Below, piece after piece: positions 1 to 37,189 of a stretch of 64,000 nt of DNA. Position numbers and translations under genes: made by a program. The notes below the pieces were generated by a model. The model was given only the letters and a program-made list of their open reading frames with translations, searched no databases and was not told the origin of the DNA. Numbering within the stretch: position 1 is the first letter of the stretch; each line of letters starts with the position of its first letter. The DNA is from an uncultured Actinomycetes bacterium. Lineage in GTDB: Bacteria; Actinomycetota; UBA4738; HRBIN12. The stretch spans positions 403 to 64,402 of the forward strand of contig CAWGFO010000010.1 in the NCBI GenBank assembly GCA_963821925.1, given 5' to 3'.

Positions 1-209
1 GGCCTCGGCGCCTCTCCTCACCTTCCACACTCGCAGCGAGCGAGCGCAGGCAGGGGTGGCGGCGAGGGTGCTGACGGTGAACGGCCTGCCGCTCTTGGCT
101 GACGGAGGCAGCGCGCTGCCGCTCCTCGACGAGGTGCCGGTTCGACTCGTCTTCTCCGAGCCTCTCTATTCCGGCCACCATCGGCCCCGAGAGCGTTCGG
201 CTGATTCAC

Positions 210-2605: not shown

Positions 2606-3504
2606 GGTCCATCATGCGAAGAACCGGGCTCGTCCTCGTCCTCCTCTGTGCCGTGATCAGCCGGGCCGCCTTCGGTCAATCCGGCGACGACAGTGCGGGT
2701 TCCTCGACGGTTGTGCCAACTCCCGCTGCGACGAGCTCGACCCGCGAGTCGGAGCGCGACAGCTGGTTCGGGTTCTCCTTTCGTCTCGGGGGGCTGTTCA
2801 TCCTCCCCACAGGGCGAAGCAAAGAAGTGGAGCTGGCCAACGTGAGCCCGATGGCCCATCTCTCGGGTTTGACCGACGGGCCGATTGCCGGCTCGTGGGC
2901 CGCGATGGGCAGCAACGTGATGGCGGCCGCCACCATCGGCTGGGCTCCTCCGATCCTGAATCGGCAGTTGTCGATCGAGACGATCCTCGCGCTCCCGTTC
3001 ACCCAGAAGTTGTACATGGGAGGGACCCTCGCCACCGCCTCGCTGGCCCCCACCGCCCTTGGCGTGCTGCCGACCGGGGTGCCTGCGCTCGGCTCGGAGC
3101 TTGGGGAGGTGACGGTGTTGCCGCCGGTCGTGACTCTGGTCTACCGGTTCTTCCCCTCGTGGCGAGTTCGACCGTACCTCGGGGCGGGGGCCAGCCTCCT
3201 CGTCGTCATGGGCGCGAGGATCACCAATCCGGCGCTCTCCGAGATTTCTCCGCCGAAGGTCGAGATTCCTCCCAAGCTCGGTTGGGTGGTTCAGGCGGGG
3301 GCCGAGGTTCGCGTATTCGGTTCGTTCTTCGTCACCGGCGACATCAAGTACATCGGAGGGCTCGCGCTCACTGCCAAGGTGACCGACATCTGGGTTCGGC
3401 TGCCGAACCTGCCGCTCTACGGGCCGGTGAAGGTGGGCGACAACGTCGTGAGGGTTTCCGTCAATCCGGTGGTCGTTCAGCTCGGCATCGGGATGAACCT
3501 CTGA
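2602..3504 (+). CDS. Outer-membrane beta-barrel protein (OmpW-like) with an N-terminal signal peptide.
   Basis: MRSIMRRTGLVLVLLCAVISRAAFG|QS signal followed by alternating hydrophobic beta-strand periodicity. Its start overlaps the stop of the upstream gene (2602 vs 2605), which suggests translational coupling. Confidence 0.55.
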   Translation: MRSIMRRTGLVLVLLCAVISRAAFGQSGDDSAGSSTVVPTPAATSSTRESERDSWFGFSFRLGGLFILPTGRSKEVELANVSPMAHLSGLTDGPIAGSWAAMGSNVMAAATIGWAPPILNRQLSIETILALPFTQKLYMGGTLATASLAPTALGVLPTGVPALGSELGEVTVLPPVVTLVYRFFPSWRVRPYLGAGASLLVVMGARITNPALSEISPPKVEIPPKLGWVVQAGAEVRVFGSFFVTGDIKYIGGLALTAKVTDIWVRLPNLPLYGPVKVGDNVVRVSVNPVVVQLGIGMNL

Positions 3505-3609
3505 ACCACCAGCATCAATCTCCTCGCTCCCCCCACACCGAGGAGAACGGGGTCCTCCGGATGGCGAGCGAGGCCGAAGACGACCGCGCACCCTCCCTCA
3601 TTCACTCAC

Positions 3610-4601
3610 TCACCACGTCCGCGACAGGAGGTCGAGCCGATCGAGCTCCTTCGCTGAGAGCTGGAGCCCCATCGCTCCGACATTCTCGTCGGCGTGCTTC
3701 GGCTTGCTCGCGCCTGGAATGGCGACCACCGTATCGCCGTGGAACGCCACCAGCCAGGCGAGGGCGACCTGCGAGGGCGTCGAGCCGTAGGCCCGAGCGA
3801 GGCGCCCAGCTCCTCGACGAGGGGCCGGCTCTTCTCGAGCCCGCGCGAGCGAAACGCCGGCAGCACCTTTCGCGGGCCGCTGATCGAGCTCGGGTCGTCG
3901 TGGAACTTGCCGGTCAACAGGCCCTGCTCGAGAGGGGAGTAGGCGATGATGGTGATGCCAAGCTCCTTCGCTGCGGCGAGCACGCCGTTTCGCTCGATGC
4001 GCCGGTCGAGCAAGTTGTACTTCATCTGGTTCGACGCGAGTGCCAGGCCCTTGGCCGCCAGCGCGGCACAGGCTCTCCGCATGCGTTTCTCGCCGAAGTT
4101 GCTCACCCCGACGGCGCGGGTCTTCTTCTCTGTGACGAGCGCGGCCATGGCTGCCATCTCCGCCTCGACCGACGAGAGACCGAACGGCGCATGCACCTGA
4201 TGCAGGTCGATGGGCCATGGCGAAAGGGCTGCGATTCGGTCGCCGATGGTCGCCTCGATGCTGCTCGCCGTGCGCAGCGCGGGGAACCACTTGGTGGCCA
4301 CGACGAGCTGGCCCGGCGCCCGACCCGCCGCCAGGAGCGCCTTCGACAACGCGCGCTCGGAGCGCCCTTCGCCATAGGCCTCGGCGGTGTCGAACCAGTT
4401 GACGCCGCCAGCGAGTGACGTGGCGATAATCTCGTTCACCGTCGTCTGCGGCAGCGCCGGCCAGAAGCGCCCCGCCAGCCCGGTGCCCTCGGAGAACTGC
4501 CAACACCCGAGGCCGATCGAGGTCACCTCAAGTTCGGTTCTGCCGAGCCGGCGCTTCGTAGGCATGAGCCCCTCTCGGTTGACGAGCTGACGGGTTGACA
4601 A
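3610..4601 (-). CDS. Aldo/keto reductase with a frame change near 3820–3830.
   Basis: N-terminal AKR motifs are in ORF 3606..4601 (GLGCWQF…, …TAEAYG…, …LQQNEIE-like…). The C-terminus (…STPSQVALAWLV…IPGASKPKHADENV…) appears only in the frame of ORF 3610..4506. Confidence 0.7.
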
Positions 4602-4694
4602 ACGCGAAGCAGCCTAGCGTTCGTTTGCCCGACGGTTCTACGGAAATCTTATAAATGATGTTGCAAGGCAAAATCAATAAGCCCAAGCTGCGCC

Positions 4695-5498
4695 ATGGCT
4701 CGAGCACAATGGCGTCGCAGCGCGTTCCTTGTGGTGGTCGCGTCGGCCACCGCCGCCGCCCAGGACGCTTTCGAGATTCAGGTCTACGACGCGCGGACGG
4801 CGGCTCCGGGCCAATCGGTGCCGAGTTCCACCTGAACCACTTCTTCGTCGGGAGCACCAGCTTCGAGGGCCCAGAGCAGCCGACCAATCATGTCACCCAC
4901 CTCACCTTCGAGCCCCACATCGGCCTGGCCGATTGGTGCGAGGCGGGGGCGTACGTCTCCACCGCGGTCCGCGCCAGCGGCACCTTCGACGTCGCGAGCC
5001 TCAAGCTGAGATTCAAAGCCCGGTGGCCTACGCGGCTCTGGGGGCGGCTCGGGCTCGCGCTGAACCAGGAACTGTCGGCCACCCGGCTCGACTACGAGGC
5101 GAGCGGGTTCGCCTGGGAGATTCGCCCTGTCATCGACTTCGAGTGGAGGCGGCTGGTACGTCTCTGCGAACCCCATCGTCTCGGTGCCGTTGGGGGGGCC
5201 CGACAAGGGCAGGCCTGAGCTCGAGCCCTGCGCCAAGGTTGCCATCCGCGCACTCGAGATCCTCTCTGTCGGGGTGGAATACTACGGCGCGCTCGGGCCG
5301 ATCGCCCGTATGGATGCCCCCGCGTCCCAGGTTCACCGGCTGTTCGGCGCGCTCGACTTCGACTGGCGGTCGGGCCGCCGACTGTTCGAGCTCAACCTCG
5401 CTCTGGGTTACGGCCTGTCAGGCGCCGAGCGGTCGATCGCCAAGGCGACTGTGGCGTTCGACGTGGAGCCAGAGCCACCCAGGCCCTCGGGGCAGTGA
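4695..5498 (+). pseudogene. Secreted beta-barrel-like protein read across three frames (at least two frame changes, near 4805 and 5175).
   Basis: Signal peptide MARAQWRRSAFLVVVASATAAAQDAFEIQVYDARTA in one frame (ATG 4695). It continues as …AEFHLNHFFVGSTSFEG…FEWRRLV in the frame of ORF 4655..5218, then as …PLGGPDKGRPELEPCAKV…ATVAFDVE in the frame of ORF 5184..5498. A G7 homopolymer lies at the second switch. Confidence 0.45.
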
Positions 5499-5600
5499 GA
5501 GGCCCAAGTCGACCAGACCGGAGCCGTCACCTGATGACGTCGCGCCACGGTGCTTGGTCCACCACCAGCCCAAAACCGCCTCTCGCGAGCGACCTGGCGC

Positions 5601-7247
5601 TCACGGTTTGCAGGCGAGGGCCGTGGCGCCAGCCACCTCGGCGAGCAGAGCCTGGAAGCGCCGGTGTTTGCTCGAGAACGAGCTCTGGAGCGTGCGGACC
5701 ATCGTCAGGTCGGCTCCGTCGACCGCCAGTCGGCGGCCCAGCGCATAGGTGAGCGTGCGGTCGATCATGCAGGCCTCGGTGCGCGGGTCGGCTTTGAGGA
5801 GCTGCACCAGTCCTGTGGCATTCTGGAAAGGCTTTCCTGCGAAGATTCCCGCGGGGTCGATGGTGGCGCCGTTCTCTTGGGTGCGGAGCCGGGAATCGGC
5901 CCCGTACACCTCGAGGGCGTAGCCGATGGGGTCGAGGACCTGGTGGCAGCCGTTGCAGGCCGCGCTCGCTGTCAGCGCATCGAGGCGCTGGCGAACGGTC
6001 GGCTGATCGGTCGTCGCGTCGGGCACCGGGGGCACGACGACGCCAGCGGGAGGCGCGAGAGGCGCGCACAACATTCGTTCGAGCACGTAGTTGCCGCGCT
6101 TGGGCACGTTCGTCTTGGTCGTCTTGCTGGTGACGACGAGCGGCGCCGACTGGCCGAGCAGGCCGGCTCGGGGATCATTGGGGCTCAACGTCACTCGGGC
6201 CAGCGCATCGCCGCTGGCCGACAGGTTGAGGAAGCCCGCCAAGGTTCCGTTGACGAAGGTGACCGTAGCGTCAATCAGGTCGAGCGCGTCGCGATCTCGG
6301 AGAAGAGGAACTCGTCGAGGTAGGCCCCGATCTGTTGTTGCATGGCCTTCATCACGCCGGTGGTGACGCCGGGAAACAGGGCGGCGTCGAGGGCCACACC
6401 CTCGACGTTGCTCACGTTGAACCACTGCGCCACGAAGCGGCTCTTGAGGCTGGCCGCCCGTGGGTCCGCCAGGAGTCGGGCAACCTGCGCGTCGAGCACG
6501 CTCTTCTGCGCGATGGCCCCCGAGTCGGCTAGGGCGGCCAGCTCGTCGTCGGGCGAGGTGCCCCGACACGAAGTACGACAGGCGCGAGGCCACCGCCCAG
6601 GTCGACGCCGCTTGGGCTTCGGGCACCACCGCCTCGGTGCGGAGCAGGAAGTTGGGGCAGCAGACTGCGCTCAAGGCGAGCTTCGCGGCGCTTTCGAAGT
6701 CGTCGCCCGCGGCGCGGGTAGCGTCGTAGAGCTGAACGAGGCTGGCCAGCTCGTCGCGCGTGACGGGCCTGCGCCAGGCGCGCCGGGCGAACCTCGAGAG
6801 GAGCTCGTTGGCGCACGACGCTTCGGTCACCGCTCCGCCGGGCGTACACGACCTGAGCCGGCTCTGGGCGGGTGGGATCGCCGTACGGGTGGTGTCCCGC
6901 GCCCACGCTGCGTCGATGACCCGAAGGGCGACGTCTCGAGCCCCTGGACCAGGCCGGGGGCGATGGACAGGCTGGGTCGCGTCATTGTCGAAGTGGAGCG
7001 CGCCGATGACGTCGGCGGGGAAGAACCTCGCGGGTTTCAGCTCGTCGTCGACGAGGGAGCCGAGCGTGGCGTCGATGTCTTGAATGTTGAGGCGTGTCAG
7101 CGGCGCGCGCGACAGCTGGCACGCCTCGGCCGGGACGTTGGGGTTGGGATTGGGATGGGGGTCAATCGTCTCGGAGCCGAGGGCCGAGACGATGCCCTCA
7201 CAACCGGAGACGACGAAGAAGAGCACTGAGAGGAGGAGTGGGCGCAT
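5601..7247 (-). pseudogene. DUF1592/DUF1585-type protein (planctomycete-type c-type cytochrome domain family) with at least two frame changes.
   Basis: A CxxCH motif (…ASAACNGCHQVLDPIG…) sits near the C-terminus. The central conserved segment is found only in the alternative frame ORF 6275..6499 (…RFVAQWFNVSNVEGV…). The middle of the long ORF is an Arg-rich nonsense frame. Confidence 0.55.
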
Positions 7248-7253
7248 GGCTTT

Positions 7254-8622
7254 CTAGAGCCCCGAGAGGGAGGTGACGCCGAATTCGCCGAACTTCCCAG
7301 TCACGCCGAAGGCGGAGAGGATCGTCACGAATGCATCGCCGACGTGCTTGTGCTGGCCGTCGATGTGACGGCCTGGGTTGAGGGCGCCTCCGAGTGAGCC
7401 GGCGAGCAGCACGGGCATGTTCATGGAGTCGTGGAGATCTGCGTCGGCGACATCGCTCCCGTAATAGAGCGCCGCCCGCTTGATGAGCGGTGTGCCGTCG
7501 GCGTCGGTCACCTTGGCGGAGCTGGTCGACGAGGTAGGCGAAGATGCCCACCTGCCAGGCGTCGATCACGCCCTTCGCGTGCGTCTTGGCCGCGTCCGTC
7601 CCGTGGTGCGAGGCGTTCCGGGGTGCGAGTAGGCGACGCCGTCGACCTTGAAAGACATCGGGCTCGTGCCTTGGCCCAGCATGTAGGTGGCGGCGCGCGT
7701 GGCGTCGCACTGGAAGCCGCCAACGATGAGGTCGCACATGAGGTTGGCGTACTTGTCTCGGTCCACGGGGATCAGCGAGACCGGTGTGGACCGATCGCAG
7801 CTCGTCGAGATGGAACCGAGTCCGACGAGGCAGTCATCTTGTCCAGTTCCACCTCGATGCGCCGCACGCCCTCGAGGTACTCCTCGACGCGGAGCCGGTC
7901 GTCGGTGCGGAGATCCTCGACTTGAGCGCTGCGGCGTGCCCCTTGACCGCGTCGACCACCCGCCGGCGTCGGGCCGCCTCCTTCAGCACCGCGGAGAGAC
8001 GCCGGCGTCTGTGCTGCCCCCGTTCCCGCTTCCGCCTGAACCGAACAGCCGCTCGAAGGCGACCTGCGGGTGGTAGACGTTGGCCTGCGCCGAGCCCTTG
8101 CTGACCGACACCACGCACTGGGCGCTGTTCGGCCATCTTGCCGGTCCTCCCGGTTGGGGGCCTGGTAGTAGCCCTGGCTGTTGGCGACGAATCCGCGGGG
8201 GCCAATAGTACCCGTTGTTTTCGAGGCCGAGGTTCAGCGTGGCGAGCTTCACGCTCGACTCGCTCAGCCTTCCGATGACCTGATTGATCGAGCTCGCTCC
8301 GTCAAGCCGGGAGGCGGTCAGGAAGACCTTGAGCCCGCCATCGGGGCTGCCCATGTTGTTGTCGTCGCCAGGCTGGAGGTTCGAGATCACGCTCACGTGC
8401 TGGCGAACGGGGGCCAGCGGGGCCAGGGAAAGGGGCAAGTCGAAGGTCGAACCGAAACTGGTCGGTCGCCACAGCGCCGGCACGATGCCGATTGGGTCCG
8501 TACTGCCAGCACGAAGCGGAAGGGCGCGACGACGTCGGCTTGCGCTCTGAGGCATGAGCGAGCTGGAGGAGTGGCAACAAGGCCAATCCTGATCGACGGA
8601 GGAGGGTCCGACGGCTGAGCAT
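7254..8622 (-). pseudogene. Tat-secreted DUF1552-family protein with at least three frame changes.
   Basis: Tat signal MLSRRTLLRRSGLALLPLLQLAHA at 8622. DUF1552-like segments lie in ORFs 7983..8555 (…FERLFG…), 7566..7766 (…DRDKYANLMCDLIVGGFQCDATRA…) and 7254..7511 (…MPVLLAGSLGG…), each in a different frame. Confidence 0.55.
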
Positions 8623-8699
8623 GAGTTCTCCTTTTCCTGTACGTTGCTGCTATGCGGTATGGAGGCACGATCGGCCGGGAAAGGGTCAACGAGTGTTAT

Positions 8700-8790
8700 C
8701 CGTTGTGAACACTCCGTGCGTGTGTGGGTGTGTATATATGTGAATGTGTGTATGTGTGTTGATGTGCATGCGTGTTGATGTGCATGTGGT
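8700..8790. repeat. GT-rich, lower-GC microsatellite-like tract with an imperfect 16-bp tandem duplication (gtgttgatgtgcatg c gtgttgatgtgcatg).
   Basis: Read directly: tgtgtgggtgtgtatatatgtgaatgtgtgtatgtgtgttgatgtgcatgcgtgttgatgtgcatgtgg. Confidence 0.7.
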
Positions 8791-8807
8791 TAGAGGGATT
8801 CTCGGAG

Positions 8808-9940
8808 GTGCTGCGTTCATTCTCGGGTCGTCATCATCGGTGCTGGCGTGGTCGGGCTGGCGATCGCCGACGGGTGTCGCGCAGGACCCGAGAAGTGGTC
8901 GTTCTCGAGAGCGCGGCCCGCACCGGCCAAGCGACGTCATCGCGGAGCTCCCAGGTGCTCCACTCGGGGCTCGACCACCCCAAAGGCTCGCTCAAGGCCC
9001 GGCTCTGTGTGGCGGGCAATCGCGCGCTCCCGAGCTGGTGCGAGATGCACGGCGTGCCCCTCAGGAGGGTCGGCAAGCTCATCGTCGCTACCACCGATCC
9101 CGAGCAGACCGAGCTCGAGGAGCTCCTCCGCCGGGCCGAAGCCAATGGCGTCGAAGGGATCATGGCCCTCGACGGCTCCGATGTCCGATCACTCGAGCCC
9201 TCGGTGTGCGCGGTGGCCGCGCTGTGGGTGCCGTCCACCGGAATTCTCGAGGCTCGTACCCTGGTGGATTCACTGGCTCGCGCGGCGGTCGACCGAGGTG
9301 TCATCGTCGCCCTCCGCCACCACCTGATGTCCCTTGAGCCCGAGCCTGGAGGCTTGGTCGCTCGAGGTGGCGTCGGGGCAGGATTGCTTTCGGCTCCATG
9401 CCCAGTGGGTGATCAACGCGGCGGGGCTCCATGCCGATGCCATCGCGTCCCTCGCCGGCCTCGACGTCGACGCGCTGGGCTACCGCCAACACTGGGTCAA
9501 GGGGCGCTACGTGCGGGTGCGCGGCGGGCGCCAAGTCGCGCACCTGGTCTACCCGCGTGCCTCCGGCGACGTTGTCAGGGCTGGGGGCTCGATCTCACCA
9601 TCGGCCTCGACGGCGACGTGCGGTTGGGTCCCGACGTGGTGCCGCTCGAGACGCGCGTCGAGGACTACGCGGTTGACGAGGGCTGTCTGGCGGCGTTCCA
9701 CGAGGCGGCGCGTCGGTTCATCCCCTCCCTTTCTCTCGACGAGCTGGCGGCCGACACTTCGGGCATCTACTCAAGCTCTCTCGACCCGGAGGGCCGTGGC
9801 GCGACTTCGTCGTGGTCGAGGAGAGCGCCCATGGGTGCCCGGGCTCGTCACCCTGGCTGGCATCGAGTCGCCTGGGCTCACCTGCTCGACCGAGCTGGCG
9901 AAAGAGGTCGATGCCATCGTCTCTCTTCCTGCTTGAGGCT
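8808..9940 (+). pseudogene. FAD-dependent oxidoreductase of the L-2-hydroxyglutarate oxidase / glycerol-3-phosphate dehydrogenase type, with about five frame changes.
   Basis: Rossmann motif VVIIGAGVVGLAIA, followed by …VVVLESAARTGQ…SSQVLHSGL…GSLKARLCV…HGVP…VGKLIVAT… (frame of 8772). …FRLHAQWVINAAGLHADAIA… is in another frame and …LVTLAGIESPGLTCSTELAKEV… in a third. Confidence 0.55.
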
Positions 9941-10155
9941 GTGTCCTCGGCGACGAATCTGGAGCGTGCGCGCACCAGCCTGGAGTGCTATCTATACGTA
10001 ATGAGTGCTGTTTTTGTCGGCCTTATAAGAGATCGTCGCTCGTGCGCACATCACCACTGTTCACGAATGGCCTTTTTGGACTATAAAGCGCCGTCATTTT
10101 TCATCCTCTGACTCTGAGGTTTGGGGTCGGAGCCAGCGAAGCGGAGCGTTCCTCG

Positions 10156-10443
10156 ATGGCGCAGAACCTCGGATTCACGGTCTGGCTGACAGGTATGTTG
10201 GGGGCGGGGAAGTCGACGGTAGCGAACTACGTCGCTGCACGGTTGAGGCAAGTGGGCCGGAACGTCGAGATACTCGACGAGGACGAGCTGGGTGAGGCGC
10301 TCTGGGCGGAGATGGACGGCTCGACCAAGGAGCAGCGGATCGTCATCTCGCGTCGAATGGCCTTCTTGGCCGAGCTTCTCACCCGCAACGGGGCCTGTGT
10401 GATGGTGGCCTGCACCAGCCCGTACAAGAGCCAGCGTGACGAG
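10156..10443 (+). pseudogene. cysC: Adenylylsulfate (APS) kinase, 5' portion only (about 95 of about 190 residues).
   Basis: GFTVWLTGMLGAGKSTVA P-loop, followed by …LDEDELGE… and …ACTSPYKSQRDEA. After about 10443 the frame degenerates and runs into the 3' end of an opposite-strand gene. Confidence 0.6.
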
Positions 10444-10538
10444 GCCAGCAGCACGTCGATCGCGCCGGAGCCGAACACCTGGAACGCGATGAAGGCGCCG
10501 TCAGGCGCCCGGGTGTAACGGGTCTCGGGGACATCCAT
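10443..10538 (-). pseudogene. N-terminal 32-codon fragment of a second alpha/beta-hydrolase–cyclase paralogue.
   Basis: MDVPETRYTRAPDGAFIAFQVFGSGAIDVLL parallels MKLDVQYAWNGDVAIAYQVLGEGPRDLLIV of the upstream gene. Its ATG overlaps the upstream stop (ATGA). Similarity is lost after about 10443. Confidence 0.4.
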
Positions 10539-11872
10539 CACGCGACCACCCTGAAGAGGCGCCAGCGATCGGGGACGCCCTTCAGCTCGTGATCGCCGGC
10601 GTCCTCGAATACGAGGCCCGACCCGGCGGTCAGGTCGCGCACGGTCGAGGACGCGAGGATCTCGTCGGCACCCGCGAGTGCGGCGACGCGGGCGCCGATG
10701 TGTACGGCGATCCCGCCCACGTCGTCCCCGCGCAGCTCGACCTCGCCCGTGTGCACGCCGGCTCGGACACGGAGGTCGAACGGTCGGACCCCGTCCACGA
10801 TCGCCCGGGCGCATCGCACGGCGCGGGCAGGGCCGTCGAACGTCGCGAGCATCCCGTCACCGGTCGGGTTGACGTAGCGGCCGCGGAACCGCTCGACGGC
10901 CTCGTGCGCGATCGAGTCGTGCGCCGTGAGCCGCTCCTTCCAGGCGGCGTCCCCGAGCTGGGCTGCGAGCTCCGTCGAGCCCACGATGTCGGTGAACAGG
11001 ACCGACGTGAGCACGCGATCTGTGGGAACCCGCTGGGTCCTCTGCGTGACGAATGTTTCGACCTCATCCATAAGCGCGGCGCTGTCACCGACCCACGGGG
11101 AGGAATCGATGCCTGCAAGCTCCACGAAGCGAGCATCCGGGATGCCATCGGCGACCTGTCGTCCTTCGTTGATGTCGTTCGCACGGTCGCCCGTGCGATG
11201 CAGAACCAGCGTCGGCACACCGATCACCGGCAGGATGTCGGTCACGTCGGTGTCTCGCTCCACGGCCAGCATCGCGACCGCCGAACTGGGGCTGGCGGAC
11301 AGGCGCGTCCACGTCACGAATCGATCGACCTCATCCGGATCGTCGAGCATCGAGGGGTTCTGCCATCGCATCTGTTTGATCGTCCACGACCGCGTTCCCC
11401 AGCCCGCGCGGGCGCCGTCGAGGAAGGTCTGCCAGGCCTCGGTCCCCCAGTCGGACTCCTCATCCATACCCTTCGTGGCGGCGCTGAACAGGACGAGGGA
11501 GTGCACGCGCTCGGCATGGGTCGCCGCGAACGCGATCGCCGGATAGCTCCCGTCCCACACACCGAAGACGGTGGTCCTGACCGATCCCGCCGCGTCCAGG
11601 ACCGCGAGGATGTCGTCGTTGGTCGTCTCGAGCGGGGGCGCCTCACCCGCGCCGAACCGATCGGACAGCCCGGTGCCACGGCGGTCCATGATGATCAGGC
11701 GCGAGAACGACGCGAGGCGCTCGTAGAACGTGGCGAGCTTCGGCAGCTGCCACGCGTACTCCAGGTTCGACAGATACCCCATCACGATCAGCAGGTCGCG
11801 AGGTCCTTCGCCGAGGACCTGGTAGGCGATCGCCACGTCGCCGTTCCACGCGTACTGCACGTCGAGCTTCAT
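10538..11872 (-). CDS. Alpha/beta-hydrolase domain fused to a class III adenylyl/guanylyl cyclase domain (LipJ-like architecture).
   Basis: N-terminal hydrolase region (…IIMDRRGTGLSD…) and C-terminal cyclase region (…VLFTDIVGSTELAAQLGDAAW…GDGMLATFDGPARAVRCA…GVHTGEVE…). Confidence 0.8.
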   Translation of the reverse strand: MKLDVQYAWNGDVAIAYQVLGEGPRDLLIVMGYLSNLEYAWQLPKLATFYERLASFSRLIIMDRRGTGLSDRFGAGEAPPLETTNDDILAVLDAAGSVRTTVFGVWDGSYPAIAFAATHAERVHSLVLFSAATKGMDEESDWGTEAWQTFLDGARAGWGTRSWTIKQMRWQNPSMLDDPDEVDRFVTWTRLSASPSSAVAMLAVERDTDVTDILPVIGVPTLVLHRTGDRANDINEGRQVADGIPDARFVELAGIDSSPWVGDSAALMDEVETFVTQRTQRVPTDRVLTSVLFTDIVGSTELAAQLGDAAWKERLTAHDSIAHEAVERFRGRYVNPTGDGMLATFDGPARAVRCARAIVDGVRPFDLRVRAGVHTGEVELRGDDVGGIAVHIGARVAALAGADEILASSTVRDLTAGSGLVFEDAGDHELKGVPDRWRLFRVVA

Positions 11873-12047
11873 CGTGTCAGCACCCGGTACGGCGCCAGCC
11901 GTCGGCGACGGCTGGGATATCGACGACCCAGGACTGCCGCACGCAGGGACTCTTCACGTCGCCAGTCTCGTTCGCGCGTGACATGGGGCGCAAGTTGTTG
12001 CCCACAGTGTTGGCTAGCCATCGGCTACGCGTTAGATCACATCTGCT

Positions 12048-12824
12048 TCATGCCTTGGAGCGCAGGATGTCTTCGAGGCGCTTCGCCATCTGTGGACTCG
12101 CCCCTTCGTCCTCGTGCTTGAAGTAGCAGAAGACGTCGGCGCCGCCGGCGAGCGCTGTGCCGATCCGCTCCGCCCACGCCGCGAGCTCGTCGTCCGTGTA
12201 CTCGGTCTTGCGCAGACGGAAGTAGCCGGCGGGGTCCCACGAGATCTCCTCGGGCGTCGGGTCCTTCTCGTCGGTCTGGGCCACGCACCACGCGACGCCC
12301 TGGTCCCGCAGCAGGTCCCGCGCCTCGAGCCAGGAGGCGTGACGGAACTCCATCGCGAACCGCGGGTTCCCGTTCCCGGTCGGGGGGAGGTACCCGACGA
12401 AGCCCTCGATCAGCGCCCGGTCGTAGTGCAGGTTCGGCGGGCACTGGAAGAGCACGCACCCCAACCGGTCGCCCAGGGTCTTCGCGCGCTCCAGGAAGTC
12501 GCGGACGTCGTCGTCGCAATCCTTCAGCCGCCGGGAGTGCGTGATGCGCTGGTTCGCCTTCAGCGTGAAGACGAATCCGGGACGCGCGCGGTCGCGCCAG
12601 GTCGAGAGGGTCTTCTCCGTTGGGAACCGGCGGAACGTGTAGTTGATCTCCACCGACGACAGCTGCGACGAGTAGTAGTCGAGCATGTCGTCCTTCTTGA
12701 GGTCCTCCGGGTAGAAGACGCCGTGGCGCCACTCGTCGTAGGCGAATCCCGACGTCCCCAGGTAGAAGCTGCCGACCATGGCGTGCATCATCGCATGCGT
12801 GCCGTCGCTCGACGTCGCAGGCAT
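12048..12824 (-). CDS. DUF72-family protein (YecE-like).
   Basis: …FYLGTSGFAYDEWRHGVFYP… and …YYSSQLSSVEINYTFRRFP… match the DUF72 signature. Confidence 0.8.
   Translation of the reverse strand: MPATSSDGTHAMMHAMVGSFYLGTSGFAYDEWRHGVFYPEDLKKDDMLDYYSSQLSSVEINYTFRRFPTEKTLSTWRDRARPGFVFTLKANQRITHSRRLKDCDDDVRDFLERAKTLGDRLGCVLFQCPPNLHYDRALIEGFVGYLPPTGNGNPRFAMEFRHASWLEARDLLRDQGVAWCVAQTDEKDPTPEEISWDPAGYFRLRKTEYTDDELAAWAERIGTALAGGADVFCYFKHEDEGASPQMAKRLEDILRSKA
12776..12804. repeat. 29-bp direct repeat copy 1 (ccatggcgtgcatcatCgcatgcgtgccg).
   Basis: Matches 14519..14547 at 28 of 29 positions. It lies inside the 5' coding end of the DUF72 gene (minus strand). Confidence 0.85.
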
Positions 12825-12839
12825 CAGGGTCGCGGGCCG

Positions 12840-13904
12840 CTATGAGCCCGGGCTGCAAGCAGGGATGTCGCTCACGCGGGGCAGTCGCTGGATCCACATC
12901 TCTCCGTCGATGCGGCGCACGAGATAGACCTCGTCGTCGAACGTCAGTGGGTCGACCCACAACTGGAAGAGCCGGCTGTGGTAGCCGGTGAAGACGGCGC
13001 CCGGAGGGAGGACCGTGAGCGGTGTGTACGGCACCGCGCTCCGGTCGGCCCAGGAACCCTGCGGATCCGCGACGTACACGCGTTCGACCTCCGCGCCCGT
13101 CGGCTCCGTCCCGAGTGGGTCGATCAGCTGAAGGATCGTCGGCGGCCATCGCCGACAATCCGGCATCCAGAACGTGGAGAGCGTGGCGGGCGCCAGGGGC
13201 CGGCCGTCAGGGCCGTACCACGGAGTTGGCGGGACGATCGTGCCGCCGGGGCTCGTCGGGCCACCTCTATCGAGGATCCCCGGCGCTACCTCGACGGTTC
13301 CCGGGCCGCAGAAGGCGTCCGGATCCGCGTGGTCATGCGCGCCTCTCGGCGAGGGCGCTCCCAGCTCGTAGGGACGGACCTGGACTTCGCCGTCCGAAGT
13401 GACGCGGCTGGGCACGGGAAACATGCCGGAGGATGCGGGGCCGGTCATGTACTCGCCGTGATCGTCGAACTGGGCTCCGTGCTCCAGCTCCCTGAACCCA
13501 CCGAACGGTCGGCAGTACCGCAGTTTCTCCTCCACCCCGTACGGGGAATGGGGAGACACGGCCGAGAGGGCGTAGGGCTCTCCCCCTTGATCCGCGACGA
13601 CGAAGACCTCCGCCTCCGCGAGGTACACGACTCCCTCCGTCGAAAGGTCGGCGATCGACCCGGCATCGACCCACTCCCCGGCCACCGACGTCGCCGGCGG
13701 TGGCGCGATCGAGCCATCGGAGGCGGGACGACGCGAGGCGAAGGCCGCAACGATGACGGTGACGAAGACCGCAGCGATGGCGATCGCACCGACCTTGCGG
13801 CGACGCGCCACGCGACGCTGCCTGCGGATCTGTCGGTCGAGCGCGTCGGGCACGGCGGGCGCCTGGCGGCTCACCGTTTCGAAGAGTTCCTTCATGTCAG
13901 GCAT
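12840..13904 (-). CDS. Putative anti-sigma factor or membrane protein, with one TM segment after a short cytoplasmic N-terminal segment and a large extracytoplasmic domain.
   Basis: Immediately downstream of an ECF sigma gene with a 10-bp gap. …VGAIAIAAVFVTVIVAAFA… is a TM segment. There is no family-level match. Confidence 0.5.
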   Translation of the reverse strand: MPDMKELFETVSRQAPAVPDALDRQIRRQRRVARRRKVGAIAIAAVFVTVIVAAFASRRPASDGSIAPPPATSVAGEWVDAGSIADLSTEGVVYLAEAEVFVVADQGGEPYALSAVSPHSPYGVEEKLRYCRPFGGFRELEHGAQFDDHGEYMTGPASSGMFPVPSRVTSDGEVQVRPYELGAPSPRGAHDHADPDAFCGPGTVEVAPGILDRGGPTSPGGTIVPPTPWYGPDGRPLAPATLSTFWMPDCRRWPPTILQLIDPLGTEPTGAEVERVYVADPQGSWADRSAVPYTPLTVLPPGAVFTGYHSRLFQLWVDPLTFDDEVYLVRRIDGEMWIQRLPRVSDIPACSPGS

Positions 13905-13913
13905 GCCGACCCC

Positions 13914-14366
13914 TCACATCGTTCTCATCGCGGCCCGCCCCTGCGACGCGAGGACACGGACGGTCGTCGCACGGATGCCGAGGATCGAGCCGGCCTGCGC
14001 CGAGTCGTAGCCGATGATCTCGGTGAGCACGAGCGCGGCGCGCTGGCGCGCCGGGAGCGCCGCGAGCAGGCGACGGACGTCTTCGCGCAGCTCGATCTCG
14101 TCGAACGGATCCCTGGCGTGCACGGTCGGCAGCGCGCGGCGGGTGGCCGCCTTGGCGCGGCGCAGCCGCGTGCGGAAGCCGTTCAGGGCCACGCGGAACA
14201 GGTAGGCGGTCGGGTCGTCGATCCGGTCGATCCGGTCCCACCGTTCCCACAGTTTGACGAAGGCTTCCTGGGCGAGATCCTCGGCCTCGTCGGCGCTCCC
14301 GGTGATGAAGAACAAGGCGCGGTAGAGGAGGTCGTGCTGCTCGAGGAAGAACTCCTCGAAGCTCAT
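13914..14366 (-). CDS. ECF-type RNA polymerase sigma-70 factor.
   Basis: Region 2 (…LYRALFFITGSADEAEDLAQEAFVKLWERW…) and region 4 (…LTEIIGYDSAQAGSILGIRATTVRVLASQGRAAM…). The ORF extends to 14426, but MSFEEFF at 14366 is the more plausible start. Confidence 0.8.
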   Translation of the reverse strand: MSFEEFFLEQHDLLYRALFFITGSADEAEDLAQEAFVKLWERWDRIDRIDDPTAYLFRVALNGFRTRLRRAKAATRRALPTVHARDPFDEIELREDVRRLLAALPARQRAALVLTEIIGYDSAQAGSILGIRATTVRVLASQGRAAMRTM

Positions 14367-14518
14367 CGGCGCCGCTCGCGGGTCCCGTCTCCGGTCCGAC
14401 GCCACGCCTTGCCCTCCGATCACCATGACCCATGGACGCTACGGGGGGTGCGTTCGTTTAGGCCGCCGTCGGATCCGCACAGCTCAAGGGCCGCAGGCGG
14501 ACGCGTGCCTATTGCCCG

Positions 14519-14547
14519 CCATGGCGTGCATCATGGCATGCGTGCCG
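14519..14547. repeat. 29-bp direct repeat copy 2 (ccatggcgtgcatcatGgcatgcgtgccg).
   Basis: Matches 12776..12804. It supplies the start codon and first nine codons (MACIMACVP) of the hydrolase gene. Confidence 0.85.
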
Positions 14548-15210
14548 ACACCCGAGGAACGCCTCACGATCGACGTGCCCGACGCGGGCCTGGTCAGCGG
14601 CGCCTACGCGCGACCCTCCGGGGCCGACCGCACGATCGTGGTCGCGCACGGCGCCGGCGCCGGGATGGACCACCCGTTCATGGTGGGCTTCAGCCGGGCG
14701 ATGAACGAACTCGGCGTGGCCACGCTCCGGTTCAACTTCCCGTACATGGATGCGGGTCGCCGCAGCCCCGACCGCCAGCCGGTCGCGGTCGCGACGTGGC
14801 GTGCGGCGTTCGACGTCGCGGTCGCACGAGCGCCCGGGGGCGAGCCCGTCTGGGCGAGCGGCAAGTCGTTCGGCGGGCGGATGGCCTCCGTCGCGGTGGC
14901 CGAGGGGATGCCGGCCGCCGGGCTCGTGTTCCTCGGGTACCCGCTGCATCCTCCGGGCAAGCCGGAGCGCGTCCGAGACGAACACCTGTACGCGATCGAG
15001 ATCCCGATGCTGTTCCTGCAGGGCACGAAGGACCCGTTCGCCACCCCCGCGGTGCTGGCGCCGGTGATCGAGCGCCTGGGCGCTCGGGCCACGCTGCACG
15101 CGATCGATGGCGGCGGGCACTCGCTCGAGCGGTCCCGCAAGGACGACCCCCGCGAGACGGGCGCCGCGCTCGCGCCGATCGCCGCCGGCTTCATGCGGGA
15201 GGCGCGCTAG
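14521..15210 (+). CDS. Alpha/beta hydrolase (dienelactone-hydrolase-like small hydrolase family).
   Basis: …IVVAHGAGAGMDHPFM…ASGKSFGGRMAS…LQGTKDPFATP…IDGGGHSL matches an alpha/beta-hydrolase topology with a GxSxG-like nucleophile elbow. Confidence 0.7.
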   Translation: MACIMACVPTPEERLTIDVPDAGLVSGAYARPSGADRTIVVAHGAGAGMDHPFMVGFSRAMNELGVATLRFNFPYMDAGRRSPDRQPVAVATWRAAFDVAVARAPGGEPVWASGKSFGGRMASVAVAEGMPAAGLVFLGYPLHPPGKPERVRDEHLYAIEIPMLFLQGTKDPFATPAVLAPVIERLGARATLHAIDGGGHSLERSRKDDPRETGAALAPIAAGFMREAR

Positions 15211-15508
15211 ATGCCGCGGAAGAACCGGCGCAACCCCGAGTTCTTCACGCCGCCCGAGGCGCCCTCGACGCCGTCGAGGGGCGCCGACACGCCCATCTGG
15301 GCCCAGGCGCCCGGCTACGAGGTCCGCGGCGTGGGCGGCCAGAAGGAGTACCGGTGCCCGGGTTGCGACCACATGGTGCGCGCCGGGATCGCGCACCTCG
15401 TGGTGGTGCCCGACCGACGACGTCGACGCCCGCCGCCACTGGCACACCGAGTGCTGGAAGCGCGAGCTCCGCCGCCTCGGGCTCTACCGCGCCCCGACGG
15501 TCGAGTAG
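15211..15508 (+). CDS. Small basic zinc-ribbon protein (Cys-x2-Cys … His/Cys), conserved hypothetical. It has one frame change near 15417.
   Basis: MPRKNRRNPEFF…YRCPGCDHMVRAGIAHLVVVP in the frame of 15211, followed by TDDVDARRHWHTECWKRELRRLGLYRAPTVE* in the +1 frame. Dropping one base in cccgaCcgacgac would restore a single ORF. Confidence 0.5.
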
Positions 15509-15551
15509 ATCGCCGACCCGAACGCAGGAACGTGTCGGCGCGCTGGCTACG

Positions 15552-15734
15552 ATGCCCGACATGGAGCCGTCGACCGTCACCGAGCGCGAGCAGCGCGCCG
15601 ACGCCGCGACCTGCATACCGATCACCGAGTCGAAGCGTCTGCCGTGCGATCTGTGCGGACACCCGATGGAGCCCGAGCACGCCCACTACCGGTGCCCCTC
15701 CTGCCACTACATCCTTCCCTGCTGCGGCTGGTGA
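15552..15734 (+). CDS. 60-aa Cys-rich zinc-ribbon-like protein.
   Basis: MPDMEPSTVTEREQRADAATCIPITESKRLPCDLCGHPMEPEHAHYRCPSCHYILPCCGW carries two CxxC pairs. It is embedded in a 918-aa antisense artefact ORF and its reading frame is only moderately supported. Confidence 0.35.
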   Translation: MPDMEPSTVTEREQRADAATCIPITESKRLPCDLCGHPMEPEHAHYRCPSCHYILPCCGW

Positions 15735-15783
15735 CCGAGCGACCGGTCCCGGGACTGGCGCGGCCTTGCGACGCCGTCATACG

Positions 15784-16197
15784 ATGCCGCGCATGGCGTT
15801 CGAGGCGCGGGCACGCATGTGGGAGGCCGGGGGCCGTTGGTACGCGCGCATCCTCGACGCGCCCGCCTACATCGAGGTGACGGGGATGAGCCGTCACGGG
15901 TGCCTCCAGGAGCTCCGCAAGGTCACGGGCGACGACGTCACGCTCACCGTCGACGTGATCCCCGCGATCGTCGGCGTGGCCGAGGCCGCCGAGATCATGG
16001 GATGGGACAAGCGCCGCGTGATCACCTACATCGACCGCGGGTCGTTCCCCGAGCCGATCACCTCGCTGGCCTCGGGTCGGATCTGGCTCCGCGAGGACGT
16101 CGAGGCGTACGCCGCGGACTGGCGCGTGCGGCACCCCGCGAAGCCACCGACGCCCGTCAGCGAGCCCACCGCGGTCCCCGCGAGGCCGACCGCGTGA
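15784..16197 (+). CDS. HicB-like (UPF0150 fold) N-terminal domain fused to a C-terminal helix-turn-helix DNA-binding domain; antitoxin-like regulator.
   Basis: …MWEAGGRWYARILDAPAYIEVTGMSRHGCLQELRKV… resembles the HicB pattern. …VAEAAEIMGWDKRRVITYIDRGSFPEP…GRIWLREDVEAY is an excisionase/MerR-type HTH. Confidence 0.5.
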   Translation: MPRMAFEARARMWEAGGRWYARILDAPAYIEVTGMSRHGCLQELRKVTGDDVTLTVDVIPAIVGVAEAAEIMGWDKRRVITYIDRGSFPEPITSLASGRIWLREDVEAYAADWRVRHPAKPPTPVSEPTAVPARPTA

Positions 16198-16841
16198 CCC
16201 AGCGCCTCTACCTGATCCGCCACGGCCAGGCCGACTACACCTCTGACGCGCGCCTCCCCACCTCCCGGGGGGTCGCGTTCGACCCGCCGCTCTCGGTCAC
16301 CGGCCGCGAGCAGGCGGCGGCTCTGGCCGAACGGCTCCGACACCTCACGCCTCCCGCCGCCGTCTACTCGTCCACGCTCGCCCGCGCGCGCGAAACGGCC
16401 CACGCCTACGCGGACCCGGCGGGCATCGAGGTCGTCGAGCGGGAGGACCTCTGCGAGTGGTACGGCGGGGGATGGGAGTTCAAGGACTTCTCGCAGATCT
16501 TCGACGAGCATCCCGATGCGCGGCACCTGTTCCGCACCCAGCAGCCGGCATGGCACCTCGCGCCCGAGGCCGAGACCGGCTCCGACTTCGCCGCGCGCGC
16601 CCGGGCCGCGATCGAGGCGGTGCTGGCCGAGCATCGCGAGGGCGACCTCTACCTGTTCGTCCACGGCGGCGTGATCAACGCGTTCCTCGCTCCGATCCTC
16701 GGGATCCACGGCCAGGAGATGTTCTTCCTGCCGGCGAACACCAGCATCAACACCGTGCTGGTCGAGGGCGACGAACGCCGCGCGTGGTTCCTGTCCGACG
16801 ACGCGCACGTGACGAACCCCGAGTGGTTCGAGCACGGCTGA
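16194..16841 (+). CDS. Histidine phosphatase family protein (phosphoglycerate-mutase-like).
   Basis: LYLIRHGQADYT… (RHG catalytic motif) and …TLARARETA…FVHGGVINAF. The GTG start overlaps the upstream stop (GTGA). Confidence 0.8.
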   Translation: MTQRLYLIRHGQADYTSDARLPTSRGVAFDPPLSVTGREQAAALAERLRHLTPPAAVYSSTLARARETAHAYADPAGIEVVEREDLCEWYGGGWEFKDFSQIFDEHPDARHLFRTQQPAWHLAPEAETGSDFAARARAAIEAVLAEHREGDLYLFVHGGVINAFLAPILGIHGQEMFFLPANTSINTVLVEGDERRAWFLSDDAHVTNPEWFEHG

Positions 16842-16929
16842 CCGAGTCGCCGCGGACCCCGTCCGGGACCGCCGGCCCGCATCGCCCCCCTATACTTCCC
16901 GCGCATCCGCCCGACGCGAAAAGGAGGCC

Positions 16930-17313
16930 GTGATGGCCGTCAAGTTCCTCTCACCCGAATGGGCCGCCGCCCTGACGACCGAGCTCAACGCCAACGCGGC
17001 CTTCCATGAGGCATCGGCCGGCCAGCGGGCGAAGATCCAGCAGATCATCACCGGCAGCGACGAGACGCACTACTGGATCACCTTCGACGACGGCACGATC
17101 GACATGGGCGTCGGCGACCTCGAGGCTCCCGACGCGACGATCACGCAGAGCTACGAGACGGCCGTCAAGCTCGCCAAGAGCGAGCTCTCGGCGGTCACCG
17201 CCTTCATGACGGGCAAGATCAAGATCGGCGGCAACATGGGGCTGCTCCTCGGGCTCCAGGGCGCGCTCACGCATCTGCCCGCCGCGATGGAGAAGATCGA
17301 GGTCGAGTACTAG
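16930..17313 (+). CDS. SCP2 sterol-binding domain protein.
   Basis: …FMTGKIKIGGNMGLLLGLQGAL… matches the typical SCP2 C-terminal signature. Confidence 0.75.
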   Translation: MMAVKFLSPEWAAALTTELNANAAFHEASAGQRAKIQQIITGSDETHYWITFDDGTIDMGVGDLEAPDATITQSYETAVKLAKSELSAVTAFMTGKIKIGGNMGLLLGLQGALTHLPAAMEKIEVEY

Positions 17314-17729
17314 GAGGCTTCGCCGAGCGCGATCGTCGCGCTCGCGGTCGCGAGCAGCTTCCCGTCGGCATCCACCACGTCGGCTGCCGCGTGCGCGAGC
17401 GTACGGCCGATCCGCAGCACCCGACCCCGGCCCACGATCCGCCCCGGAGCGCCCGGCCGCAGGTACTGCACGGTCAGCGAGATCGTGACGTGCGTCCGCC
17501 CGGGGGCCAGCTCGGTCCGCACCGCGAGCCCCGCGGCCGTGTCCGCCAGCGTCGCGATCATCCCGCCGTGCAGCGCGCCCTGCAGGTTCAGATGATGCGG
17601 CGCGGCGTCGAGGGCGATCTCGACCGCTCCCGGCGCGGCGTCGAGCACCGACATGCCCGCCCAGCTATGGAACGGCGATCCCTCGAGCCGGGCCCGAAGG
17701 TCCCCCTTCGTATCCTCCCCTTCGGCCAT
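17310..17729 (-). CDS. PaaI-family hot-dog thioesterase.
   Basis: …LQGALHGGMIATLADTAAG…GRGRVLRIGRTLAHAAADVVDADGKLLATASATI…. Confidence 0.8.
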   Translation of the reverse strand: MAEGEDTKGDLRARLEGSPFHSWAGMSVLDAAPGAVEIALDAAPHHLNLQGALHGGMIATLADTAAGLAVRTELAPGRTHVTISLTVQYLRPGAPGRIVGRGRVLRIGRTLAHAAADVVDADGKLLATASATIALGEAS

Positions 17730-17857
17730 CCGTCGTACCTCCCGGTCACGTAGTCTCCCAGTGAGGGCCCCGGCCGTTTGACGGCCCGGGGAACCCCAAG
17801 GACAATCCTGGCGGATCGGATCCCGGTCCCGGGGAATATGAACGGAGGGGAACGCAC

Positions 17858-18970
17858 ATGCCTAAGTGGCTCCGTAGGCTCGCCCTGCCTGTCGTCGCGC
17901 TCGGCCTGGTGGCCGCGGCGTGCAGTAACAACGACAGCAGCAGTACGGCGAGCGGCGCCAGCGGGAGCGCCACCGAAGAGTGCACGTCCGACATCACGGT
18001 CGGCGTGGCGCTCGACGTCGGCGGTCTCGGTGACAACGGGTTCAACGACCTGTCACAGATCGGGCTGCAGAAGGCGATCGACGAGGGCATCATCTGCGAG
18101 AGCAACACGAAGTTCCTCGAGTCGAACGCCGACGGCACGAACCTGGACGAGAACACGCAGTCGCTGGCCGCGGACAACTACGACCTCGTGATCGGGACCG
18201 GGTTCGCGTTCACGCCCGGTATCAACGCGATCGCGCCCGACTATCCGGACACGGACTTCGGGATCATCGACGGGTACGCGACCTGCGGCACGGCGTGCGG
18301 GCTCGACAACGACGCCAAGGACATCCCGAACGTGACCGACCTGGCCTTCCAGGAGGAGCAGGGCTCGTACCTGGTCGGCGTGGCCGCCGGCCTCAAGGCA
18401 CAGGAGCTGAGCTGCGACACCGTCGGGTTCCTCGGCGGCCAGACCGGCCCGCTGATCGCCAAGTTCCAGGCTGGGTACGAGGCCGGCGTGGCCGAGGTTG
18501 CGCCCGAGGTGACCGTGCTCGTCGAGTACATCGGCGACACCACCAAGGCGTTCGACGACGCAACGGCGGGCGAGGCCCTGTCGAAGAAGATGTACGACGA
18601 CGGCGCCTGCATCATCTACCACGCTGCTGGTGACTCGGGGAACGGCCTGTTCAAGGCCGCGGCCGCGATGGAGAAGATCGCGATCGGCGTCGACTCCGAC
18701 CAGCACGAGGTCGTCTCTGCCGACCAAGCGCCGTGGATCATGACCTCCATGATCAAGCGCGTCGACACGGCCGTGTACGACACGATCGCGGCGGTGGCCG
18801 ACGGCACCTTCAAGGGCGGCGGCCAGGTCTTCGGCCTCGCCGAGGACGGTATCTCGTACGCGACGAGCAACCCCGACCTGATGAGCCAGGACATCGTGGA
18901 CCAGGTCGAGGCGTACAAGCAGAAGATCCTCGATGGCACCATCGTGGTTCCGACCGAGCCCGGGAAGTAA
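17858..18970 (+). CDS. BMP-family (PnrA/Med-like) ABC transporter substrate-binding lipoprotein, probably for nucleoside uptake.
   Basis: Signal plus lipobox (…LVAAAC|SNND). BMP signature segments …VALDVGGLGDNGFND… and …VDSDQ…. Confidence 0.85.
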   Translation: MPKWLRRLALPVVALGLVAAACSNNDSSSTASGASGSATEECTSDITVGVALDVGGLGDNGFNDLSQIGLQKAIDEGIICESNTKFLESNADGTNLDENTQSLAADNYDLVIGTGFAFTPGINAIAPDYPDTDFGIIDGYATCGTACGLDNDAKDIPNVTDLAFQEEQGSYLVGVAAGLKAQELSCDTVGFLGGQTGPLIAKFQAGYEAGVAEVAPEVTVLVEYIGDTTKAFDDATAGEALSKKMYDDGACIIYHAAGDSGNGLFKAAAAMEKIAIGVDSDQHEVVSADQAPWIMTSMIKRVDTAVYDTIAAVADGTFKGGGQVFGLAEDGISYATSNPDLMSQDIVDQVEAYKQKILDGTIVVPTEPGK

Positions 18971-18995
18971 CTGAGGGACCGAGGGTATCGACGCC

Positions 18996-22704: not shown

Positions 22705-22707
22705 GGA

Positions 22708-23331: not shown

Positions 23332-23398
23332 CGGCCGGATACTACGCGACCGACGGCGGCGCCCGTCACGCGTCGCGGGGGTCGGGCATGATGGAAAC

Positions 23399-24187: not shown

Positions 24188-24240
24188 CCCGCGACGGCCG
24201 CTTGCCAGGCCGCCCGGCGGTCTGCCACGATGTGCCGGTC

Positions 24241-24294
24241 ATGCAGCGTTCCTACGGCTTCGGGTTTACCTACGCGGGCATCCGCCCGGCGTAG
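24241..24294 (+). CDS. Candidate 17-codon leader peptide enriched in aromatic residues (MQRSYGFGFTYAGIRPA).
   Basis: Four of 17 codons are Tyr/Phe (tac ttc ttt tac). It sits 97 bp upstream of the DAHP synthase start and is followed by alternative hairpins. No strong Shine-Dalgarno sequence. Confidence 0.3.
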   Translation: MQRSYGFGFTYAGIRPA

Positions 24295-24322
24295 CCGCCT
24301 GCAGCCAGCCAGCAGACAGCGA

Positions 24323-24360: not shown

Positions 24361-24390
24361 TCCGTCCGGGCAGGACGGGAGGTTCCACAG

Positions 24391-37182: not shown

Positions 37183-37189
37183 CGTCGAG

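Follow-up and report, generated by a model that had tools for sequence, protein, structure and literature searches.

An abrupt change of organism within one assembled contig can belong to several known kinds of event. Inter-genome chimeric contigs occur in long-read metagenomes, and chimeric reads, which account for at least 1% of nanopore reads, are a known cause of misassembly (PMC7967992). Alternatively, the change may mark real DNA, either as a transfer scar left by end-joining without a mobile element or as an island introduced by an integrative element, such as an integrative and conjugative element (ICE), a prophage or a transposon. An expansion of myxobacterial genomes has been attributed to horizontal gene transfer (PMC4880591). 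Here, we analyzed such a junction in a stretch of 64,000 nucleotides (the window, positions 403 to 64,402 of contig CAWGFO010000010.1 in assembly GCA_963821925.1, assigned to an uncultured Actinomycetes bacterium), at which the 5' part of an APS-kinase gene abuts the first codons of a hydrolase-cyclase gene. Two organisms contributed to the window, with positions 1-10,445 coming from the chromosome of a soil Myxococcota and positions 10,446-64,000 from that of an abundant actinobacterium from soil. Direct observations are the exact breakpoint, the uninterrupted parents on both sides, an asymmetry in sequence errors and a second contig with the same joint. Regarding its origin, we consider with a probability of about 40% that actinobacterial DNA was captured in a Myxococcota sub-lineage and that a read carrying this joint was mis-joined to an actinobacterial contig.

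The break is located between positions 10,445 and 10,446 and could be placed to the base by alignment to uninterrupted contigs from both sides, which sharpens the position of about 10,443 proposed in the first-pass annotation of this DNA. Homology to the uninterrupted Myxococcota contig ERZ25039503 contig_76140 (L017) ends at 10445, from where L017 continues into the 3' half of the kinase gene, and homology to the uninterrupted actinobacterial contigs L002, L005, L006 and L007 ends at 10446, from where these contigs continue into the second of two cyclase genes. The Myxococcota parent reads ...GACGAGGC/GCGGCGG and the actinobacterial parent ...CCGGCAT/CAGCAGC, with the slash marking the break, while the window (10445..10446) combines them to ...GACGAGGC/CAGCAGC. 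Parents and window side by side reveal a blunt junction with 0 bases of filler and 0 bases of microhomology. No nanopore (Oxford Nanopore Technologies, ONT) adapter was found at the joint, and the search for direct repeats, target-site duplications, inverted repeats and palindromes at this place returned only chance-level short matches. Integrase, transposase or relaxase genes were not detected among the left-arm genes scanned in Pfam or in the left-arm gene tables, and a plasmid collection contained no close match but only cyclase-domain hits of 67-71%.

The left one of the two cut genes encodes an APS kinase (10156..10445, plus strand, Pfam APS_kinase), from which codons 1-97 of 221 are retained, the last one without its third base. 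The profile match of the open reading frame (ORF) starting at 10156 is limited to positions 2-94 of 152, in agreement with the earlier view that the kinase is cut near half of its length. Intact relatives (P0288-P0292), which were found through the cluster of the chimeric ORF spanning the joint and not through the first homologue search, have 221 amino acids and are encoded without interruption on five further contigs. Among them, P0288 covers the profile positions 2-151 and is identical to the window kinase in residues 1-97. In L017, the gene continues after the equivalent of window position 10445 with ...RDEARRLIQRYVEVYVDCP, and the sequence of the kinase 3' half that is absent from the window is ...RRLIQRYVEVYVDCP. 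On the other side of the joint, direct reading of the minus strand from 10538 to 10446 gives the first 31 codons of a second hydrolase-cyclase gene (cyc2), MDVPETRYTRAPDGAFIAFQVFGSGAIDVLL, which are colinear with L002, L005, L006 and L007 and resemble the N-terminus of the adjoining hydrolase-cyclase of 444 amino acids (cyc1). A truncated paralogue had indeed been recognized at this place, its length being 31 instead of the proposed 32 codons. Since cyc2 is whole in L006, where it encodes 443 amino acids, the window retains 31 of 443 codons, and uninterrupted versions of both cut genes, the kinase of 221 and the cyclase of 443 amino acids, exist in close relatives. The neighbouring cyc1 (10538..11872, minus strand) is an intact fusion of an alpha/beta-hydrolase and a class III cyclase (Pfam Hydrolase_4, Abhydrolase_1 and Guanylate_cyc) and shares 99% identity with P0014, which is encoded on L002, a contig of 176 kb. 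The stop codon TGA of cyc1 and the start codon ATG of cyc2 share one base (ATGA, 10536-10540), as is also the case in L006, so that translation of the two tandem cyclase genes may be coupled. Across the joint, a chimeric ORF of 120 amino acids (P0287, 10156..10518, plus strand) has been annotated in public records; it consists of the kinase residues 1-97 followed by the antisense of the cyclase fragment.

The same joint was found in a second contig, ERZ25039545 contig_169405 (L001, 35,314 bp), which was retrieved through P0001 with the kinase half as query. L001 is colinear with window positions 322-11,960, that is, across the joint, so that the joint is not unique to the window. Its identity to the window is 78-85% in positions 1-3,500, exceeds 99% in approximately 3,850-10,590 and is low past 10,590. 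L001 lacks 11 bp (window 10440-10450), about 5 nt of which agree with the Myxococcota and about 5-6 nt with the actinobacterial parent. Because the missing bases span both parents, the joint in L001 derives from a window-type joint; the joint k-mers of the two variants are GTGACGAGGCCAGCAGCACG and CCAGCGTGAGCACGTCG. Moreover, the first 150 bp past the joint carry L007-type alleles in L001 and L002-type alleles in the window. These other alleles past the joint, together with a difference of about 20% in the Big_5/OmpW region at the left end of the window, indicate that window and L001 are different molecules. L001 stops 1.5 kb past the joint, and no second boundary was seen in it. The presence of the joint in a second public contig makes a one-off sequencing accident an improbable cause.

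In the tail of L001 (L001 10440-11776, corresponding to window 10600-11960), blocks of at least four cyclase allele types follow one another, some with 98-100% identity to alleles of other samples. According to approximate coordinates read from 60-column bins, the block at window 10,600-10,960 is of unknown type and rich in indels, the one at 10,960-11,140 is of the window/L002 type, the one at 11,140-11,800 is 93-100% (mostly 98-100%) identical to L003, and the one at 11,850-11,960 is again of the window type. The tail has the look of a collapsed cyclase repeat, common to several strains, whose copies were blended into one consensus, and not of a real gene or of one molecule. Its interpretation as one noisy read of an L003-like gene was ruled out by the near-perfect blocks of different alleles.

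A further difference between the two arms concerns sequence quality. The left arm had been described as riddled with frameshifts, and this state was confirmed, since every left-arm gene needs 2-4 reading frames and long coding-like ORFs make up 33% of the left arm versus 89% of the right arm; the cause, however, is sequence error and not decay. In a three-way comparison of window, L001 and L017 over positions 4660-10445, private changes of the window amounted to 27 indels and 37 substitutions (about 1.1%) and those of L001 to 2 and 5, respectively, one of these two indels being the junction deletion. Hence, the frameshifts are not shared, because 27 of the 29 indels in this region are private to the window and have no counterpart in the near-identical L001, which with its low number of private changes seems to represent a well-covered consensus. 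The indels of the window affect single bases, comprise about as many insertions as deletions, occur approximately once per 200 bp and are about as frequent as substitutions. An origin from homopolymer errors was dropped, since the indels are not concentrated in homopolymers of at least 3 bases, and generic read error at low coverage is preferred. Private errors amount to 11 per kb on the left, compared to approximately 0 indels per kb on the right, a measure that is only a proxy for read depth. The left-arm frameshifts are sequencing noise rather than gene decay, and the asymmetry of private errors at the joint points to approximately single-read quality of the left arm and a deep consensus of the right arm.

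Homology and tetranucleotide profile assign the two arms to different organisms. The early impression of a Gram-negative-like left and an actinobacterial right arm was borne out by homologues from Myxococcota and Actinomycetota, respectively. The tetranucleotide check recommended at that stage was run against references that do not overlap with the window. Here, the left arm correlated with r = 0.97 to Myxococcota and 0.91-0.94 to actinobacterial references, whereas the right arm correlated with 0.975-0.985 to actinobacterial and 0.90-0.93 to Myxococcota references; accordingly, the arms reach 0.97 and 0.98 to their own phylum versus 0.90-0.94 to the other. The content of guanine plus cytosine (GC) is lower on the left (0.665 versus 0.704), as had been stated, but the step is modest, because several 1-kb bins of the right arm are also near 0.66. 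The contrast is larger for GC at third codon positions (GC3), with 0.83 on the left and 0.91 on the right.

Compared with the known kinds of event, the joint shares most features of an inter-genome assembly chimera, the uniqueness of the joint excepted. As in chimeric contigs from long-read metagenomes, phylum and composition differ by arm, the consensus quality changes in a step, the arms have differing continuations elsewhere, the joint is blunt and lies at arbitrary points of genes, and the foreign arm has about the length of one read. It is unlike them in that L001 has the joint as well, with a clean consensus on the Myxococcota side, another strain background on the left and an 11-bp deletion, which would not be expected from a random one-off chimeric read. 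The joint also shares some features of an illegitimate-recombination scar, namely the presence of both parents and the recurrence with a secondary change, with the second boundary being the exception. The same habitats harbour both parental alleles without interruption. The breakpoint is precise, and its two sides hardly differ from the parents, indicating a recent event. Moreover, two backgrounds that have diverged carry the joint, with a small deletion as secondary change. In contrast to such scars, only one end of the transferred piece has been seen, and the right arm of 53.5 kb is far too long, and its content too 'core', for it to be this piece. With the islands of integrative elements, the locus has in common the abrupt taxonomic and compositional change at one coordinate. 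It differs from them, because the Pfam-scanned left genes include no integrase, transposase or relaxase, no repeat or target-site duplication and no close plasmid were found, and the left genes are ordinary genes of Myxococcota chromosomes, with conserved synteny in other contigs of this phylum. Either way, it is a known kind of event and not a new kind of system.

Our preferred explanation combines a biological with a technical step. In the biological step, an actinobacterial piece would have been end-joined, in a blunt and homology-free manner, into the APS-kinase gene of a Myxococcota; this captured piece would begin inside codon 31 of cyc2 and run into cyc1. Myxobacteria are predators that live surrounded by such prey. 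L001 would be a view of that sub-lineage, with a clean Myxococcota consensus leading through the joint, which is 11 bp shorter, and then breaking up in the cyclase repeat. In the technical step, the joint-bearing Myxococcota variant would have been very rare in the sample of the window and represented by one or very few reads. Via the captured piece, such a read would overlap with the abundant actinobacterial genome and become attached to the end of a contig of 378,723 bp, where its Myxococcota overhang of 10.4 kb would be left unpolished and hence retain the frameshifts. Nanopore assemblies with this style of contig names have been made with metaFlye followed by one Medaka round (PMC12313526), and the contig names and the accession range suggest that the present contigs belong to such a project. 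The unpolished left arm suggests that window and L001 come from different samples; one common read set is disfavoured, because well-covered Myxococcota reads should have polished the identical 6.6-kb block in the window. On balance, we regard it as rather probable that the two contigs originate from different samples and that the joint is real DNA, regardless of which organism received it. The direction of transfer and the mis-join are likewise inferred. Capture by the Myxococcota is the simplest direction, because it needs one weak assembler link, whereas the reverse direction needs two and an unusually large transfer.

Several findings weigh against this explanation. L017 and the kinases that are identical over 97 residues are uninterrupted, so that the Myxococcota lineage is not fixed for the joint. 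A ligation chimera, too, would give exactly such a blunt, microhomology-free joint at arbitrary points of two genes (PMC7967992). In both contigs, the foreign part lies, or may lie, at a contig end, with a distance of 1.5 kb in L001 and of 10.4 kb in the window, provided that no other slice of its contig precedes the window. A second end of the supposed captured piece was detected neither in the window nor in L001 up to 1.5 kb past the joint. Finally, the exact 35-mer across the joint was absent from the GTDB species representatives and the JGI metagenomes. Nor did the JGI metagenomes contain a gapped pattern that takes in the two variants of the joint.

The idea of an assembly chimera, brought up with the first description of the junction, thus stands at the level of the contig, where the error asymmetry and the differing continuations speak for it, while a simple one-off event is contradicted by L001. 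In its purely technical form, it would involve one ligation-chimeric nanopore read, composed of about 10.4 kb from the Myxococcota and at least 1.5 kb from the actinobacterium, which was used at the ends of both contigs; the differences in the 11 bp, the alleles and the tails would be polishing artefacts, and the joint would exist in no cell. We take this as a rather unlikely alternative. It agrees with the blunt joint that lacks microhomology and filler and cuts two genes at arbitrary positions, and with the single-read error density of the left arm, whose noise stops at the joint. The two contigs are also mirror images of each other, and since the actinobacterial tail of L001 ends at 11960, a read of about 12 kb could span positions 1-11960. 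Furthermore, chimeras of this type are a priori far commoner than inter-phylum transfer, and the above-mentioned frequency of chimeric reads counts in the same direction. Yet, it requires one read set, in which the 6.6-kb block of the window is still 1.1% wrong despite the clean L001, and a repeat-graph assembler would normally collapse a 99%-identical block of this size and not emit it twice. Good Myxococcota coverage should also have led the consensus into the kinase 3' half, as in L017. Moreover, the left contexts differ by about 20%, and a deletion of 11 bp that takes bases of both parents is atypical of a polishing error. Hence, a one-off chimeric read accounts for the window alone very well, but not easily for L001.

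The reverse direction, a foreign insertion into an actinobacterial genome as the earlier description implied, turned out to be the less parsimonious one. It would assume an actinobacterial minority strain that carries a piece of a Myxococcota chromosome of at least 10.4 kb, perhaps at least 34 kb, at codon 31 of cyc2. The window would then be faithful, and its left arm would be noisy only because most co-occurring strains are without the insert. The right arm is colinear with and near-identical to bona fide actinobacterial contigs over at least 21 kb, the cyclase cluster is a hot spot of rearrangements, the joint recurs in a second contig, and a rare strain with abundant relatives around it could show noise on the left only. 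We nevertheless judge it unlikely, since it demands that a monoderm recently took up housekeeping and outer-membrane genes of another phylum in an unusually large transfer and without mobile-element genes, and the assembler must have followed a weakly supported link in both samples. It also leaves unexplained why the clean 35-kb L001 runs into the joint and not into an intact kinase. Left contexts differing by about 20% are natural for strains of Myxococcota but not for a single insert, and four other contigs of the actinobacterial lineage are without the insert. That a living actinobacterial strain, present as a variant in two soils, would have acquired tens of kb of Myxococcota DNA including genes for outer-membrane proteins by homology-free end-joining is doubtful. 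Still another view, the left arm as an old, decaying foreign island with pseudogenes and real frameshift mutations, might be prompted by the 2-4 frames per gene and by the GC3 that is lower than on the right. This can hardly be upheld, because the indels (27 of 29) are private to the window while L001 is a near-identical copy without them, and their single-base, balanced occurrence at about 1 per 200 bp corresponds to an error spectrum and not to a mutational one. In addition, the composition equals that of present-day Myxococcota (r = 0.97) with no sign of amelioration, and the retained half of the kinase is in its protein sequence 100% identical to the intact relative.

The Myxococcota-derived segment (1..10445), which has approximately single-read quality with about 1.1% private errors, aligns to L001 and L017. 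The latter contig, reached by cluster look-up of the L001 proteins, shows 95.6% identity over 1-3,530 and 93.7% over 4,660-10,445. The segment begins with a Big_5 (Ig-like) surface protein (2..2602, plus strand) that is present from about residue 164 of about 1,018 and was traced by tblastn with P0134-P0136 through frames 2, 3 and 2; its homologues carry the names Myxococcota, Myxococcales or Kofleriaceae. It is followed by an OmpW-family outer-membrane beta-barrel (2602..3504, plus strand, an ORF of 300 amino acids, Pfam OmpW with E = 1.9e-10), which is 67% identical to the OmpW protein of L001. A conserved Big_5-OmpW pair is likewise present on L011, a contig of 1.45 Mb, and on L012, among typical myxobacterial neighbours. 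Next to it, an aldo/keto reductase with a shifted C-terminal frame (3606..4601, minus strand, Pfam Aldo_ket_red with E = 4.6e-37) is present in the window and L001 but not in L017, which has a gap over 3530-4660 (around L017 positions 5865-5981); this presence or absence is a strain-level gene indel adjoining the Big_5-OmpW pair. A conserved hypothetical protein (4695..5495, plus strand), which has 267 amino acids in the L001 gene, is split over several frames in the window, and the public protein P0209 is a fragment called on the window itself within this gene. Further downstream, a PSCyt3/PSD5/PSD2 protein (DUF1588/DUF1595/DUF1585 in Pfam; 5601..7247, minus strand) is distributed over frames -3, -1, -3 and -1 and has its gene syntenic with that of HXXSHH in Archangiaceae metagenome-assembled genomes (MAGs; 56-59%). 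An HXXSHH protein (DUF1552; 7468..8585, minus strand) is broken into at least three frames, with the closest genomes being Archangium and Archangiaceae MAGs (59%). The HXXSHH/PSCyt pair has matches of 56-61% in Archangium and Archangiaceae MAGs, where the adjacency is conserved. The last gene before the kinase encodes a frameshifted FAD-dependent oxidoreductase of the DAO family (8734..9950, plus strand, Pfam DAO and tblastn with P0196), which is intact in L017 with 397 amino acids.

Two side observations concern this arm. Between the HXXSHH and DAO genes, an imperfect (GT)n / TGTGTGTA microsatellite is located at 8716-8788, where the local GC content is about 0.52 and the GC skew about +0.4. 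Moreover, window, L001 and L017 have a mosaic relationship to each other. The Big_5/OmpW region of the window has 95.6% identity to L017 but no more than 78-85% to L001, whereas for 3850-10445 the closer sequence is L001, with more than 99% as compared to 94% for L017. This pattern among the Myxococcota contigs suggests recombination or a hypervariable surface-protein locus.

The right arm (10446..64000) is a clean segment of an actinobacterial chromosome, colinear with L002 and L013. Compared with L002 over 10446-18000, the window shows 0-2% mismatches and almost no indels, with 0 indels in 10446-12000, and positions 11996-31724 are 97.8% identical to the 797-kb contig L013. The relatives of cyc1 were retrieved on large contigs of other assemblies with neighbouring ERZ accession numbers. 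Right-arm proteins include WhiB (49474-49824), UPF0182, an Rv1322-family protein, MreB and FtsH, and their 90%-identity clusters are named Actinomycetota bacterium. The sequence that follows downstream in L017 has no match in the window, and no Myxococcota sequence resumes within the 53.5 kb right of the joint, so that the right arm is not a short insert. The tandem hydrolase-cyclase cluster adjoining a DUF72 gene is a rearrangement hot spot of the actinobacterial lineage; L002 contains at least five hydrolase-cyclase paralogues in 10 kb, L013 has another gene beside DUF72, and the closest cyc1 relative in L003 is found in a chemotaxis context. At the far end (60001-64000), the AT skew of +0.13 to +0.25 is unusually high for the window, and the genes there, among them a cytochrome-b-like ORF, are located on the minus strand.

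The main immediate value of these results is a flag on a public MAG contig. The 378,723-bp contig available at NCBI and ENA, to which the window belongs and on which several right-arm proteins are recorded as well, carries approximately 10.4 kb of another phylum, on which junk proteins have been annotated, namely P0287 (10156-10518, plus strand) and the fragments P0204 (5604-6242, minus strand) and P0209 (5184-5495, plus strand). These proteins and the foreign arm can mislead pangenome analyses, studies of horizontal gene transfer and searches for outer-membrane genes in Actinobacteria. If the recurrence in a second sample holds true, the joint would represent a base-resolved and very recent inter-phylum connection between a predatory Myxococcota and a co-occurring actinobacterium. 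Both parental alleles would then still be segregating, and the locus would offer a useful natural example of homology-free DNA capture.

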